NCBI GenBank assembly: GCA_020354945.1
Contig: CP070655.1
Span: forward strand, 439,096 to 453,849
DNA length: 14,754 nucleotides
DNA from: Candidatus Omnitrophota bacterium
GTDB lineage: Bacteria; Omnitrophota; Gorgyraeia; JABMRG01; JAFGKX01
Reading direction: 5' to 3'
In this document: one piece after another, positions 3,756 to 14,066 of the stretch
How the letters are laid out: the number at the start of each line of letters is the position of its first letter
Position numbering within the stretch: the first letter of the stretch is position 1
The notes under the pieces: model-generated
Seen by the model: the letters and a program-made list of their open reading frames with translations, nothing else
Told to the model about the DNA's origin: nothing
The model's database searches: none
Made by a program: the position numbers and the translations under genes

Positions 3756-4142
3756 ATGAAGATAAAAGACGCAAGACGAAGAAGATATTTAAGGGGAAAG
3801 AAGAAATTGCTTGGCACAAAAGAGAAACCTCGCCTTTGTATATATAGGAGCCTTAATAATATGACTGCTCAATTAATAGATGATGTCGAAGGCAAGACAT
3901 TGTTGTCTGTCTCTACGCTGGATAAAAGATTGAGAGATAATTTTTCCGCCAAAGGCGGATCTGCCTCTGGCAGAAAACGCAATGGTAATATTACCGCTTC
4001 TAGGGCATTGGGCGAGCTTTTAGCTAAAGAAGCTCAGAAGGCAAATATGAAACAGGTCAAATTTGATAAAAGTGGCTATCTTTATCACGGAAGAGTAAAA
4101 GAGTTTGCAGAAGCTTGCCGTAAAAACGGTTTGCGGTTTTAG
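3756..4142 (+). CDS. rplR: 50S ribosomal protein L18 with a 10-aa palindrome-derived insertion
   Basis: PRLCIYRS, AQLIDD..GKTL and FDKSGYLYHGRVK. Confidence 0.98.
   Translation: MKIKDARRRRYLRGKKKLLGTKEKPRLCIYRSLNNMTAQLIDDVEGKTLLSVSTLDKRLRDNFSAKGGSASGRKRNGNITASRALGELLAKEAQKANMKQVKFDKSGYLYHGRVKEFAEACRKNGLRF
3945..3974. repeat. 30-nt double mini-hairpin element, in frame within rplR
   Basis: TCCGCC-AAA-GGCGGA followed by TCTGCC-TCT-GGCAGA; encodes SAKGGSASGR. Confidence 0.85.
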
Positions 4143-4147
4143 TAGAA

Positions 4148-4193
4148 GGTTCAGACACTGGGAATTGCTAATGCGCATCATAGTGTCTGACCC
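4148..4193. repeat. REP-like hairpin of the GGGTCAGAC...GTCTGACCC family
   Basis: GGTTCAGACACTG pairs with TAGTGTCTGACCC; followed by ATAC, as is the copy at 8600-8646. Confidence 0.75.
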
Positions 4194-4216
4194 ATACGAA
4201 GTGTTTGGAGGCTAAC

Positions 4217-4786
4217 TTGGCAGAGAAGAAAGACCAAAAAGAATTTAAAAAAGACGAGGCAGACAAAAAATCAGCCAAAGAGCTAAAAGAGGCTATTCCT
4301 CGAGAATTAAAAAAGACTTACCAGGAAATACATCCTGAGGAAGAGACTGTTGAGAAGGTAATTTCCATTAAACGAACCACTAAGGTTACAAAGGGAGGCC
4401 GAAAATTAAATTTTGGTGCAGTGGTAGTAGTAGGAGATAAAAAGGGCAATGTTGGCTGTGGTTTCGGGAAAGCAAATGAGGTTCCCAATGCGATTAAAAA
4501 GGGTATCAATGACGCTAAAAAGAATATGATAAATGTCCCTGTCAAAGGAAGCACTATACCCCATGAGGTGATTGGCAGATATGGCGCAGCCGTTGTGCTT
4601 CTTAAACCAGCGGCAGAAGGTACAGGCGTCATCGCAGGTAACGTTATAAGGCCGGTTTGCGATGCAGCAGGCATAAAAGATATATTAACCAAGTGCCTAA
4701 AATCGCAGACGCCATCAAATGTTATAAAGGCAACTATGGACGGACTAAAAAAGTTGCGTTTTAAGAATGAGTTGTTAGAAGAATAG
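4217..4786 (+). CDS. rpsE: 30S ribosomal protein S5 with a charged N-terminal extension; TTG start
   Basis: [27 protein letters not shown] and GTGVIAG. GGAGG at 4207-4211 favours TTG 4217 over TTG 4205. Confidence 0.95.
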
Positions 4787-9569: not shown

Positions 9570-10196
9570 ATGGCAAGATATATAGGAGCATCGTGCAGGT
9601 TGTGCAGAAAGGAAGGCGTAAAACTTTTTCTTAAAGGTAATCGTTGCGTAACTGAGAAGTGTGCCTTAGATAGGCGCAGTTATAAACCCGGCTTACATGG
9701 CCAACAAAGAAGAAAGCTTTCCGATTTTGGTTTACAGCTTAGAGAAAAGCAGAAAGCCAAGACAATATACGGAGTGCTAGAGAAACAATTCAGAAATTAT
9801 TTTAAAAAAGCAGAGAGGTCACGGGATGTCACCGGTGAGGCCCTTCTGCAATTTTTAGAACGGCGGTTAGACAATGCAGTCTTTAGGTGCTGTTTTGCTC
9901 CTTCCAGGCCTCAGGCAAGGCAAATGGTTGGTCACGGTTTTATTATGGTTAATGAAAAAAAGGTAAACCGGCCATCTTACTTAGTTAGCAAAGGAGATAC
10001 TATAAAGGTAAATGCCGAGAAGGACCAATTTAAGATTGTATCCGAAAGAATGCAAGACTTGAAAGAAAGAGGCATACCCGGTTGGATAAATGTAGATGAA
10101 AAACTTTTAACGGCTAAAATTGATAGGCCCCCTAAAAAAGAAGATGTTGGTTTTCCGATTCAGGTTCAGCTTATTGTAGAATTATATTCGAAATAG
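9570..10196 (+). CDS. rpsD: 30S ribosomal protein S4, cysteine-containing form
   Basis: MARYIG..CRLCRKEG.KLFLKG.RC, QLREKQK, LERRLDN and LIVELYSK. Confidence 0.99.
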   Translation: MARYIGASCRLCRKEGVKLFLKGNRCVTEKCALDRRSYKPGLHGQQRRKLSDFGLQLREKQKAKTIYGVLEKQFRNYFKKAERSRDVTGEALLQFLERRLDNAVFRCCFAPSRPQARQMVGHGFIMVNEKKVNRPSYLVSKGDTIKVNAEKDQFKIVSERMQDLKERGIPGWINVDEKLLTAKIDRPPKKEDVGFPIQVQLIVELYSK

Positions 10197-10198
10197 AG

Positions 10199-10352
10199 GT
10201 CCCCCGCTAGTAAAAGATGCTCGCACTTGCTCGTATCTTAGCAATGCTGGGGACAAAATTTATTAATAAATAGTCCCTCCAGCGCTCCTATTCGCCTGCC
10301 TGCCGGCAGGCAGGTTGCACTGTTTGGGACAATTTTTGCTTTGCAAAAATTG
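10199..10352. repeat. Composite hairpin cluster between rpsD and rpoA
   Basis: GTCCCC..AAGATGC-TCGCACTTGCTC-GTATCTT..GGGGAC; TTTATTAATAAA; GTCCC..CCTGCCTGCCGGCAGGCAGG..GGGAC; CAATTTTTGC-TTT-GCAAAAATTG. Confidence 0.8.
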
Positions 10353-12029: not shown

Positions 12030-12074
12030 GTTGGGGGGGCAGTTTTGGGGCCAGACCCTGACCCTGCATTAGAA

Positions 12075-13328
12075 ATGAGCAAGACAGTAGCGGAAAAGAT
12101 ATTAAGCGAACATTCGCGCAGGGACTTAAAGGCGGGCGATTATGCCTTATCCAAGGTGGATTTTTGTTTTGGTCAGGATGGGACCAGCGCTCTTATCATA
12201 GATGCTCTGCATAAACTGGGAGTAAAAGAGTTAACAGCAAGAAAAAGATTTTGTATGGTCATAGACCACAGTGCCCCTTCGCCAAATATAGGAATTTCAG
12301 CAGTGCATGCCAAAATGCGAAAATTTGCTGCTCGAAATAAGCTGCGCTTATATGATATAGGCTGTGGTGTATGCCACCAGGTAATATTAGAATCCGGAAA
12401 TGTACTTCCAGGCGATTTAGTAGTAGGGGCAGATTCTCACACCTGTACTTACGGCGCATTAGGGGCATTGGCGACGGGTTTCGGTTCTACAGATTTAGCT
12501 ATAACATTAGCCAGCGGCAAAAACTGGTTTAAAGTTCCAGAGACTATCAAGATAATAATAGATGGCAAATTGCCAAAGGGTGTTTATTCAAAGGATATAA
12601 TTTTGCATATTATAGGGGATTTAGGTGCTGATGGCTGCACCTATAACTCAATTGAATTTACAGGCAATACAGTGGCAGCTCTAACTGTTGATGCGCGCTT
12701 CACTATTTCTAATATGGCTGTTGAGATGGGAGCCAAATGCGGCATTATGTATCCTGATAAAAAGGTGATTAGCTGGCTTAAGAAAAGAGGTAAAAAGATT
12801 AAAAGAAAAGTCTATCCGGATAAAGATGCCGATTATGTTAGCGTAAAAAGATATGATGCCAGCAAACTTATTCCAAAGATATCTAAACCCCATACAGTCG
12901 ATAACGTATCCAATGTTAAAGCGGTTTCCGGAAAACCGGTAAATTTAGCCTATATTGGAACGTGCACTAATGGAAGTTTGGAAGACCTGGTGATAGCTTC
13001 TAAAATACTTAAGGACAAAACAATAGCTGATAATGTGAGATTGATTATAGCGCCTGCATCAAGACAGATTTATCTGGAGGCTATGAGAAAGGGGATTATC
13101 CGGACATTCATTGAAGCCGGAGGCAATGTAGTTACCCCGGGATGCGGGCCCTGCGTAGGCACTCACGATGGTGTTCCTTCCGATGGCGAGGTTGTAATAT
13201 CTACAGCGAATAGAAATTTTAAAGGCAGAATGGGCAACCCGGATGCTTTTATCTATTTAGCTTCACCGGCAACAGTAGCTGCATCGGCGTTAACAGGAAA
13301 GATAACCGATCCAAGGAGATATGCATAA
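12075..13328 (+). CDS. leuC: 3-isopropylmalate dehydratase / homoaconitase family large subunit (short HacA-like type)
   Basis: KTVAEKILS, IDH, GVCHQV, GADSHTCTYGA, IGTCTNG, PGCGPCVG, STANRNFKGRMG and YLASP. ATG 12075 preferred over TTG 12045. Substrate uncertain. Confidence 0.88.
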   Translation: MSKTVAEKILSEHSRRDLKAGDYALSKVDFCFGQDGTSALIIDALHKLGVKELTARKRFCMVIDHSAPSPNIGISAVHAKMRKFAARNKLRLYDIGCGVCHQVILESGNVLPGDLVVGADSHTCTYGALGALATGFGSTDLAITLASGKNWFKVPETIKIIIDGKLPKGVYSKDIILHIIGDLGADGCTYNSIEFTGNTVAALTVDARFTISNMAVEMGAKCGIMYPDKKVISWLKKRGKKIKRKVYPDKDADYVSVKRYDASKLIPKISKPHTVDNVSNVKAVSGKPVNLAYIGTCTNGSLEDLVIASKILKDKTIADNVRLIIAPASRQIYLEAMRKGIIRTFIEAGGNVVTPGCGPCVGTHDGVPSDGEVVISTANRNFKGRMGNPDAFIYLASPATVAASALTGKITDPRRYA

Positions 13329-13478
13329 TTTTTACATACTTGCCTCCGCTTGTCGCTCGCAAAAAGAATTCTTCGCCAGAGGCGAAGGGCACTTTTTGCT
13401 CGCTGTGGCAAAAATTGCTCGCTTCTTGCCGTTGTTCGCGCAATTTTTGACAGTCACTCCGACAAGCATGCAAAAATT
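13327..13478. repeat. ~150-nt three-way-junction hairpin element with TCGCTC linkers
   Basis: Outer arms AATTTTTACATACTTG / CAAGCATGCAAAAATT and GCTTGTCG / CGACAAGC. Branch 1 is GCAAAAAG..CTTCGCC-AGA-GGCGAAG..CTTTTTGC. Branch 2 is CAAAAATTGC..GCAATTTTTG. Confidence 0.85.
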
Positions 13479-13508
13479 TTAAAGAAAAAGGTGTTTTTTA
13501 AGAAAAAA

Positions 13509-14066
13509 ATGGAACTTAAAGGAAAAGCGCATAAATTTGGGGATGATGTAAATACAGACTATATTATATCCGGAAGATATAAATTTAAGATTCAAGACCC
13601 GCATGAACTGGCAAAACACTTAATGGAAGATTTAAAATCTGATTTTTATAAAAAAATTTCCGCTGGAGGCGAATCCGCCTCTGCCAAAGGCAGATGCGCC
13701 CCAGGCGCAAAACGTGGAAAAAGAGGAGATTTTATAGTTGCCGGTAGGAATTTTGGATGCGGTTCGTCCCGTGAACAGGCCCCCTTAGCCATAAAATACG
13801 CAGGAGTTTGTGCTGTTTTAGCAAAATCTTTTGCCAGGATTTTCTTTAGAAACAGCATCAATATAGGCCTTATGCTTTTAGAATGTGATACAGATGCCAT
13901 TTCAGATGGCGATTATCTCCTCGTCAACATAAAAAGGGGGCTTGTATATAACAAAACAAAAAATATGAAGATTCAAATCAGGCCTTTACCAAATTTTATA
14001 CTAAAGATTTTAAAGGACGGCGGCCTGGTCAATCATTTTAAAAGACATAAGGGGTTTAAGTTTTAA
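13509..14066 (+). CDS. leuD: 3-isopropylmalate dehydratase / homoaconitase family small subunit with a 20-aa insertion
   Basis: GKAHKFGDDVNTDYII, VAGRNFGCGSSREQAP, AKSFARIFFRN and GGL. The conserved domain begins at ATG 13509. Confidence 0.88.
   Translation: MELKGKAHKFGDDVNTDYIISGRYKFKIQDPHELAKHLMEDLKSDFYKKISAGGESASAKGRCAPGAKRGKRGDFIVAGRNFGCGSSREQAPLAIKYAGVCAVLAKSFARIFFRNSINIGLMLLECDTDAISDGDYLLVNIKRGLVYNKTKNMKIQIRPLPNFILKILKDGGLVNHFKRHKGFKF
13659..13718. repeat. 60-nt in-frame, apparently nested, mini-hairpin insertion in leuD
   Basis: TCCGCTGGAGGCGAA TCCGCC [TCTGCC-AAA-GGCAGA TGCGCC-CCA-GGCGCA] AAA CGTGGA; encodes SAGGESASAKGRCAPGAKRG. Confidence 0.8.

Follow-up and report, generated by a model that had tools for sequence, protein, structure and literature searches.

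A double hairpin inside the gene for ribosomal protein L18

The stretch of DNA analysed here (the window, 14,754 nt) is one whole contig of a metagenome-assembled genome of a Candidatus Omnitrophota bacterium, which we call G000 (1.14 Mb, 38.9% G+C, 89% completeness) and whose database record consists of contigs strung together by runs of 100 N. On the forward strand, positions 3756..4142 hold the gene for ribosomal protein L18 (uL18), an open reading frame whose translation is 128 amino acids long (Pfam PF00861 Ribosomal_L18p, E = 8.6e-35) and whose product also matches solved uL18 chains (best E = 8e-27). Within this gene, at positions 3945..3974, lies a 30-nt element composed of two hairpin units of 15 nt that abut directly: unit 1 at 3945..3959 (TCCGCC-AAA-GGCGGA) and unit 2 at 3960..3974 (TCTGCC-TCT-GGCAGA), each with a perfect 6-bp stem and a 3-nt loop. 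The element is in phase 0 and codes for SAKGGSASGR, residues 64-73 of L18. An initial annotation, made from the letters of the window, had pointed out these tandem hairpins, their peptide and their setting as a G+C-rich island in an A+T-rich gene, and all three observations stand: the in-frame translation agrees, and 19 of the 30 bases are G or C, against about 35-42% in the surrounding gene and window.

The pattern TCYGCCNNNGGCRGA has three matches in the window, where 0.04 are expected, and none of 200 dinucleotide shuffles had three or more. Predicted folding of a 50-nt stretch gave exactly the two hairpins as its sole elements, both as RNA (-17.9 kcal/mol, z = -3.05, equalled by 2 of 200 shuffles) and as DNA (-11.7 kcal/mol, z = -3.31, equalled by 1 of 200). 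At the protein level, alignment with the solved uL18 chain 1ovy_A puts the L18 insert opposite a 12-residue gap that follows the conserved STLDK strand. In an AlphaFold model of L18 (mean pLDDT 82.2) the insert forms a loop between helices at residues 57-64 and 79-95; pLDDT is 56 and 63 for the two 10-residue blocks of this region and falls below 50 at residues 67-69. This low-confidence loop agrees with the flexible loop in which the insertion had been placed by the initial annotation.

The public sequencing run that best holds the window may be the source sample of G000. An independent assembly of this run has a contig that spans positions 3766-4626 with no gaps and two other letters; since this second assembly contains the L18 insert, the insert is not peculiar to one assembly. 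In runs X2, X3 and X4, where no listed contig bridges the L18 site, summed depth at this bin is raised, perhaps by copies of the element from other organisms. None of the public runs listed for the window is an RNA run.

Gain of the insert within one genus

We located L18 in 40 of the 41 genomes searched and read the loci of 29 relatives. Alignment of orthologues had been proposed as a refuting test of the insertion, and it showed that the peptide is not conserved: SAKGGSASGR is present in 0 of the 29. The L18 protein of G001, a genome of the same genus, is 94% identical (the search's own figure), and its gene is without exactly the 30 nt, in line with the earlier claim that L18 is of normal length once they are removed. 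DNA alignment with G001 and with a same-family genome places the empty site at …AATTTT/AAAC… (in flanking sequence, here and below, the slash marks the point of insertion), and no target duplication was seen at the L18 site in these alignments.

The reverse polymorphism also occurs. An open reading frame of G001 carries an exact 30-nt insert at a site that is empty in G000 (…AT/AAAG…), and a further hairpin site is common to the two genomes, which differ there in the number of units. The sites of our filled and empty pairs read TTTT/AAAC, AATT/AAAA and AT/AAAG, and none of them has a duplication. The 30-nt double hairpin, hereafter the doublet, has been gained in both directions between G000 and G001, that is, within one genus.

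A different insert occupies the same L18 loop in one of the 29 relatives, G020, a genome from another family of the class (L034:1501-1878). It is longer, at about 13-19 residues, and its DNA contains a short inverted repeat, AGGTAG…CTACCT. Because G020 carries this different insert at the same place, the loop seems permissive for independent insertions.

A nested copy in a LeuD-like gene and other copies in the source genome

The second host gene in the window, at 13509..14066 on the forward strand, codes for an aconitase-family small subunit (LeuD-like; Pfam Aconitase_C, E = 3.5e-18), and the large-subunit gene lies upstream of it (12045-13328). A 60-nt composite insertion at 13659..13718 codes for the 20 residues SAGGESASAKGRCAPGAKRG, and the same-genus gene has an exact 60-nt gap there; DNA comparison with G001 puts the insert between …AAAATT and AAAAAG…. 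The 20 extra residues are missing from all 15 relatives compared, 11 of which have an exact 20-residue gap, while alignments of the other 4 have 19 gapped positions arranged differently. A contig from run X2, a metagenome of another study, skips 66 letters at this place and has 6 between, a net difference of -60, and is an empty LeuD allele in a related population.

Inside the 60 nt, at 13680..13709, lies a perfect doublet, TCTGCC-AAA-GGCAGA then TGCGCC-CCA-GGCGCA, in which positions 13680-13694 are the third match to the pattern in the window. The remaining letters form another doublet with mismatches, TCCGCT-GGA-GGCGAA plus TCCGCC…AAA-CGTGGA. Judged from these letters, the insertion would be an older, decayed doublet interrupted by a younger, perfect one, and the younger appears to split the older after its second 5' arm.

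In G000 as a whole, the tandem signature GCC-N3-GGC-N6-GCC-N3-GGC has three sites (L18, LeuD and position 789146); among control spacings and orders of the same signature, four give none and a fifth gives one. The copy at 789146 is within a PanE/ApbA gene, whose ApbA match covers 170 residues for 149 profile positions, and it too can be read as a perfect doublet inside an older one. Decayed doublets are found in a ComEC-like gene (peptide PAGGGSAFGGG) and in the C-terminal tail of L22 (peptide SARGGPDSGK). For G+C-rich hairpins in general (6-bp stem, 3-nt loop), the genome has 45 against 26-29 in two Markov simulations. As this excess is modest, the signal is a specific family and not hairpins at large, and we rejected genome-wide enrichment of all such hairpins as the signal.

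Several other palindromic repeats are present in the same genome. Between two genes, at window positions 10294-10314, there is another G+C-rich palindrome, GCCTGCCTGCC/GGCAGGCAGG, distinct from the doublet. Its 18-nt core occurs eight times in G000, and our list of hairpin clusters has about 18 sites of it, mostly intergenic; it abuts a 15-nt hairpin at G000 801410-801441 and lies within a doublet in G002 (L204). In the related population of run X3, 43 other letters replace window positions 10196-10333. In the spacer between the large- and small-subunit genes of the aconitase family (13318-13518) we found a repeat of roughly 115-135 nt that has a TTCGCC-AGA-GGCGAA hairpin at its centre; at least eight partial copies of it, 84-94% identical, exist at other places in G000. 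In runs X3 and X4, contigs have 20 other letters in place of 13318-13518, which makes this a second insertion polymorphism of the window.

From a list of perfect GCC-N3-GGC palindromes we also recovered a TTTGCC-TTC/GAA-GGCAAA repeat family with conserved flanks, whose six copies are at G000 196331, 313724, 329592, 456886, 647514 and 892824. At G000 131772, 204048 and 735907, GTAGGA or ATAGGA is followed by GCCGCC-TCC-GGCGGC or GCGGCC-TCT-GGCCGC and then by GA; these sites resemble either one more family of small hairpins or a conserved motif close to the starts of genes.

Structure of the doublet and of its insertion sites

The family consensus is TTT/TCCGCC-NRA-GGCGGA TCCGCC-TYN-GGCGGA/AAA. 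The initial annotation had suggested TCYGCC for the stem arm; the family is real, but the arm is wider than that (TCNGCC), and compensated variants such as TGCGCC/GGCGCA belong to it as well. In 113 of 125 doublets among the matches listed, both free stem positions are complementary (about 8 are expected by chance); one position only is complementary in 11, and neither in 1. The third stem pair of the family is mostly C:G (about 70% of cases), less often A:T (about 22%) and otherwise T:A or G:C, and in unit 2 of the L18 copy this pair is altered on both sides relative to the consensus. Loop 1 has the form N-R-A, its last base being A in 91%, and loop 2 the form T-Y-N, its first base being T in 92%; the last base of loop 1 pairs with the first base of loop 2 in 112 of the 117 copies listed. 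Because this loop layout is the same on the reverse complement, the doublet consists of one unit followed by the same unit inverted. We rejected a single long hairpin, for which the two loops would have to be complementary: they are fully so in 17 of 117 copies, and the shuffle mean is 15.2.

Outside the hairpins, T is found at positions -3, -2 and -1 of the left flank in 55%, 81% and 60% of copies, and A at positions +1, +2 and +3 of the right flank in 59%, 74% and 53%; no flank conservation was seen further out than three bases. A left T and a right A combine independently of each other (39, 31, 30 and 17 copies for the four combinations), and 17 of 117 copies have neither. A one-sided target was rejected on these numbers, since the two flanks are statistically independent and there is no excess of copies with at least one of them. 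The independence of the two flanks makes the target rule a loose one. Insertion of the doublet is precise and without target duplication, falls mostly between a T-rich left and an A-rich right flank, and also occurs into older copies.

Copies inside protein-coding genes

Among the matches listed, 66 loci have full flanks and a G+C content below 62%. The element lies in an open reading frame of at least 250 amino acids in 31 of these, and in shorter frames or none in the other 35. Twenty of the 31 are in phase 0, five in phase 1 and six in phase 2. The peptide varies with phase and strand, being of the SAxGG-SAxGG, PPxADPPxA or RQRRIRLxR type, and phase 0 on either strand reads SAxGG-SAxGG. Doublets that bear TCAGCC, and so have TGA in phase 0, are in that phase in 0 of 7 cases, against 20 of 24 for the other doublets.

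All six frames of the L18 copy are free of stop codons, and around the insert we saw no pair of take-off and landing codons for ribosomal bypass. The L18 peptide is probably translated and functionally neutral. The initial annotation had explained survival in genes by a length that is a multiple of three; the 30 nt are indeed in frame, but the stop-free frames and the choice of phase also count. An insertion that adds exactly 10 codons, with no stop in any frame, could be tolerated even in an essential gene, and in its commonest phase it would read Ser-Ala-x-Gly-Gly/Arg twice, a small flexible linker. Insertions would survive selection only in permissive surface loops, so that selection after insertion would leave only the copies that form harmless linkers there.

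One could argue instead that the L18 insert is adaptive, either as a selected flexible linker or as a regulatory mRNA hairpin, because it is in frame in an essential gene and its RNA hairpins are stable (-17.9 kcal/mol). However, it is missing from the same-genus L18 and from all 29 relatives, and the same DNA is found in genes of unrelated enzymes, in each of the three phases, and also outside genes. Moreover, the window has no match in Rfam at gathering thresholds, and the structural confidence of the insert is low. We assign the adaptive explanation a small probability, and treat the insert below as selfish DNA.

Distribution across genomes and phyla

A search for other genomic copies, which the initial annotation had proposed and whose failure would have counted as a refutation, found them in G000, in its relatives and far beyond. 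All but one of 61 genomes of the class have the single unit, TCNGCC-N3-GGCNGA; copy numbers range from 0 to 93 per genome, compared with 0-10 for a backwards control. Of 401 genomes sampled from the phylum, 91 have the exact 30-nt doublet pattern, at most 23 times each, and none of the 401 has its backwards control. Across bacteria and archaea, with one genome per species, there are at least 124 doublet loci, in metagenome-assembled genomes of many phyla. By our own count of the 80 titled loci among the matches listed, 34 are from Patescibacteria/CPR, 8 from Gammaproteobacteria or other Pseudomonadota metagenome-assembled genomes, 7 from Ignavibacteria-type organisms, 4 from Kiritimatiellae, 2 from Omnitrophota, 4 from high-G+C actinomycete isolates, and 21 from other groups that include Verrucomicrobiota, Lentisphaerae, Binatia, Bacteroidota and Zixiibacteriota. 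A stem pair is mismatched in two of the four actinomycete matches, and all four may be due to chance in such G+C-rich genomes. In five long-contig carriers of other phyla we counted 3-38 units, compared with 0-4 for the control.

The doublet pattern was also found at 16 loci in a viral collection, a number too small to suggest phages as its main home. Two of the viral contigs (L225 and L230), which come from different samples, carry the same doublet with flanks that are identical for at least 36 nt on each side. In G002, several hairpin units lie less than 100 nt from the ends of contigs C49, C63, C71 and C96 (L208, L211, L214). Their position near contig ends suggests that hairpin repeats break short-read assemblies, so that copy numbers in draft genomes would be underestimates.

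Nearly all carriers are metagenome-assembled genomes, as would be expected if the insert were an artefact of sequencing, assembly or binning. Against this, some carriers among the matches listed are contigs of 0.8-1.6 Mb, another is a 1.19-Mb chromosome record, and a second assembly of the best-holding run has the L18 insert. Artefacts would also have to account for the compensatory changes in variants, for the placement at T/A junctions, and for two genomes of one genus each having a filled site that is empty in the other. The probability that we leave to an artefact is therefore negligible, and we take the element to be real DNA. A search of the literature, both in general terms and with the element's sequences and peptides as text, supplements aside, found no description of it.

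New copies are templated on existing copies

Individual genomes tend to have a private variant of the doublet in many identical copies. In G178, 19 of 23 doublets are of the main variant, counted in either orientation; the corresponding figures are 10 of 19 for G179 and 7 of 16 for G031, and repeated variants are also present in G002, G064, G300, G350 and G371. The many identical copies of a private variant within one genome indicate that new copies are templated on old ones and not made afresh.

The alternative, that the hairpins arise anew at each site by snap-back synthesis, template switching at a fork or repair of a hairpin-capped break, has some points in its favor: there is no target duplication, the element encodes no enzyme, and the palindromes are perfect even where they depart from the consensus (TGCGCC/GGCGCA, CCAGCC/GGCTGG), as arm-to-arm correction could produce. 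However, palindromes made in this way would mirror their flanks or be arbitrary, whereas one consensus is found at hundreds of unrelated sites in many phyla, and the identical private variants speak against it too. We consider origin afresh at each site very improbable. Arm-to-arm correction may nevertheless act on copied doublets, and keep old copies palindromic.

The doublet does not always stand alone. All 20 copies that we fetched from G178 are embedded in a longer shared repeat, and in G028, which has a G+C content of 60%, units frequently belong to larger palindromic repeats. The doublet therefore serves mosaic elements as a module too, and where counts are high in such genomes it is the longer elements that have spread. 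Long open reading frames with a bare doublet were found in G000, G001, G002, G179, G272 and many loci of other phyla. The initial annotation had called the 30 nt a minimal element. This holds insofar as a doublet of two inverted 15-nt palindromes is what spreads, but the doublet is also intergenic and also forms the core of longer mosaic repeats. We conclude that the 30 nt in L18 are, with high probability, one copy of a mobile DNA element that is very small, non-autonomous and palindromic.

How the element might move

We suggest that the element moves as a folded single strand on which an enzyme acts in trans. The lack of a target duplication, together with ends that are hairpins, points to a single-strand route such as those of IS200/IS605 and REP/RAYT systems, and the leading candidate for the mobiliser is an HUH/Y1 transposase of the RAYT-like or IS200-like kind. 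The single Y1 gene of G000, at genome positions 1123640-1124270, has the model for REP-associated tyrosine transposase as its best match in NCBIfam, scoring 70.2 bits where the cut-off is 80. The Y1 domain PF01797 is present in 54 of 61 relatives in the class, in 5 of 5 tested carriers of other phyla and in 6 of 14 control genomes; because controls have it too, its presence says little. Copy numbers of Y1 genes and of hairpins are weakly correlated (Spearman 0.32, n = 61, the genomes being kin and not independent).

There is no G+C-rich hairpin beside the Y1 gene of G000, and TCNGCC hairpins flank the Y1 genes of other carriers at 0 of 10 loci, where short IS200-type genes bear hairpins of their own, different from the element's. 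Seven genomes of the class without a Y1 match still have 1-14 hairpin units. With no adjacent hairpins in G000 or at the 10 other loci, and a weak correlation of copy numbers, no Y1 transposase is tied to the element here. Cleavage of the IS608 type happens at a distance from the hairpin. An element that ends exactly at the feet of its hairpins is a poor fit to such cleavage. Mobilisation by a Y1 enzyme, even as the leading candidate, is therefore possible but doubtful.

Spread without any transposase would take the form of microhomology copy-choice, in which stable hairpins provoke a nascent strand to switch template at a T-run and to return at an A-run. Donors and targets do have T-rich and A-rich flanks in common, duplication is absent, as is a link to an enzyme, and the element is present in genomes without a Y1 match. 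On the other hand, microhomology of 1-3 nt is very short, and the 17 of 117 copies with neither flank lack even that. The exact ends at both hairpin feet in every case suggest that a structure is recognised, and the sequence identity across phyla would need horizontal transfer in any event. On this evidence copy-choice is unlikely, but it is a rival to be taken seriously. What these two possibilities leave of the probability goes to an enzyme of a class not yet linked to such elements.

The furthest-reaching reading, which we consider possible but less likely than not, makes the doublet a 30-nt 'nano-REPIN', smaller than any self-propagating DNA element so far seen in a cellular genome. It would be common to bacterial phyla and above all to Patescibacteria, and its mobiliser would be a single-strand DNA enzyme, either a conserved one of the host or a domesticated one, for which the two hairpins alone are the recognised structure. 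The doublet would then be a general means by which essential proteins in uncultivated bacteria acquire flexible loops of 10 residues.

If the 30-nt double hairpin is indeed a mobile element, the lower size limit for mobile DNA that invades protein-coding genes becomes 30 nt instead of the approximately 150 bp of the Rickettsia elements, and invasion of this kind would be widespread among the uncultivated majority of bacteria, not peculiar to one intracellular genus. The element offers a tangible origin for loop insertions in conserved proteins, among them ribosomal proteins; such insertions interfere with sequence alignment, with phylogenies from marker genes and with gene calling in metagenome-assembled genomes. 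Since close strains differ in having the filled or the empty allele, the element can serve as a strain marker. Together, the strict dyad symmetry and the cross-phylum consensus point to an enzyme that would recognise a minimal DNA structure.

Comparison with known palindromic elements

In form, the nearest look-alikes of the doublet are the G+C clusters and double-hairpin elements of fungal mitochondria, short G+C-rich modules that invade A+T-rich genomes, coding sequence included, and that have a similar tandem double-hairpin design. The byp inserts of fungal mitochondria are not multiples of three, and ribosomes hop over them by translational bypassing. The 30-nt element differs in not being organellar; its length is a multiple of three and its frames are free of stops, so plain read-through suffices, unlike for byp inserts.

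Palindrome-associated elements derived from IS200/IS605 resemble the doublet in having hairpin ends on a single strand and in inserting without duplication. In them a spacer separates the hairpin from the cleavage site, and insertion takes place 3' of a short, fixed target. In contrast, the ends of our element are the hairpin feet, its target is only a T/A-rich junction, and no transposase is linked to it in the loci examined.

Like MITEs, the element is small, non-autonomous and built with inverted symmetry, and is sometimes intragenic with in-frame fusion (for MITEs, see PMC10969869). It has no target site duplication, however, filled and empty sites differing by exactly 30 or 60 nt, and it consists entirely of its two hairpins, with no terminal inverted repeats around an internal region.

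The closer parallels are with two kinds of selfish palindromic DNA. Rickettsia palindromic elements are described in the review PMC10969869 as repeats of about 150 bp, confined to one genus, that lie in frame in open reading frames and code for a peptide compatible with the protein fold. The initial annotation had noted that they are much longer, and on that description they are: our element, at 30 nt, has a fifth of their length. Both are selfish palindromic repeats found in frame in unrelated protein-coding genes, with peptides that the fold can accommodate. The present element differs by its occurrence in many phyla and by coding for a low-complexity linker of 10 residues, where Rickettsia palindromic elements have a conserved peptide of their own.

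A REPIN, according to PMC3337134, is a pair of inverted REPs, non-autonomous and about 89 bp long, with RAYT as the suspected mobiliser; the RAYT gene is typically flanked by REP repeats. Set against that account, our element is similar in that its units are short, G+C-rich and palindromic, and in that it is the doublet of inverted units that spreads; it is likewise non-autonomous, has many copies per genome, and forms mosaics built from the same units. G000 also has a RAYT-like Y1 gene, though one below the cut-off of the RAYT model. The differences are that a REPIN as described there has a spacer and folds into one long hairpin of about 89 bp, whereas our element is spacer-less, has two separate hairpins and measures 30 nt, and that RAYT genes are flanked by repeats, whereas our element is not beside the Y1 gene. 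In addition, REPs are mainly extragenic and REPINs lineage-specific, whereas about half of the copies of our element are inside long open reading frames (31 of 66) and its consensus is common to many phyla. In design, the element is a spacer-less miniature of the REP doublet, and we class it with the REP and Rickettsia kind of selfish palindromic DNA.
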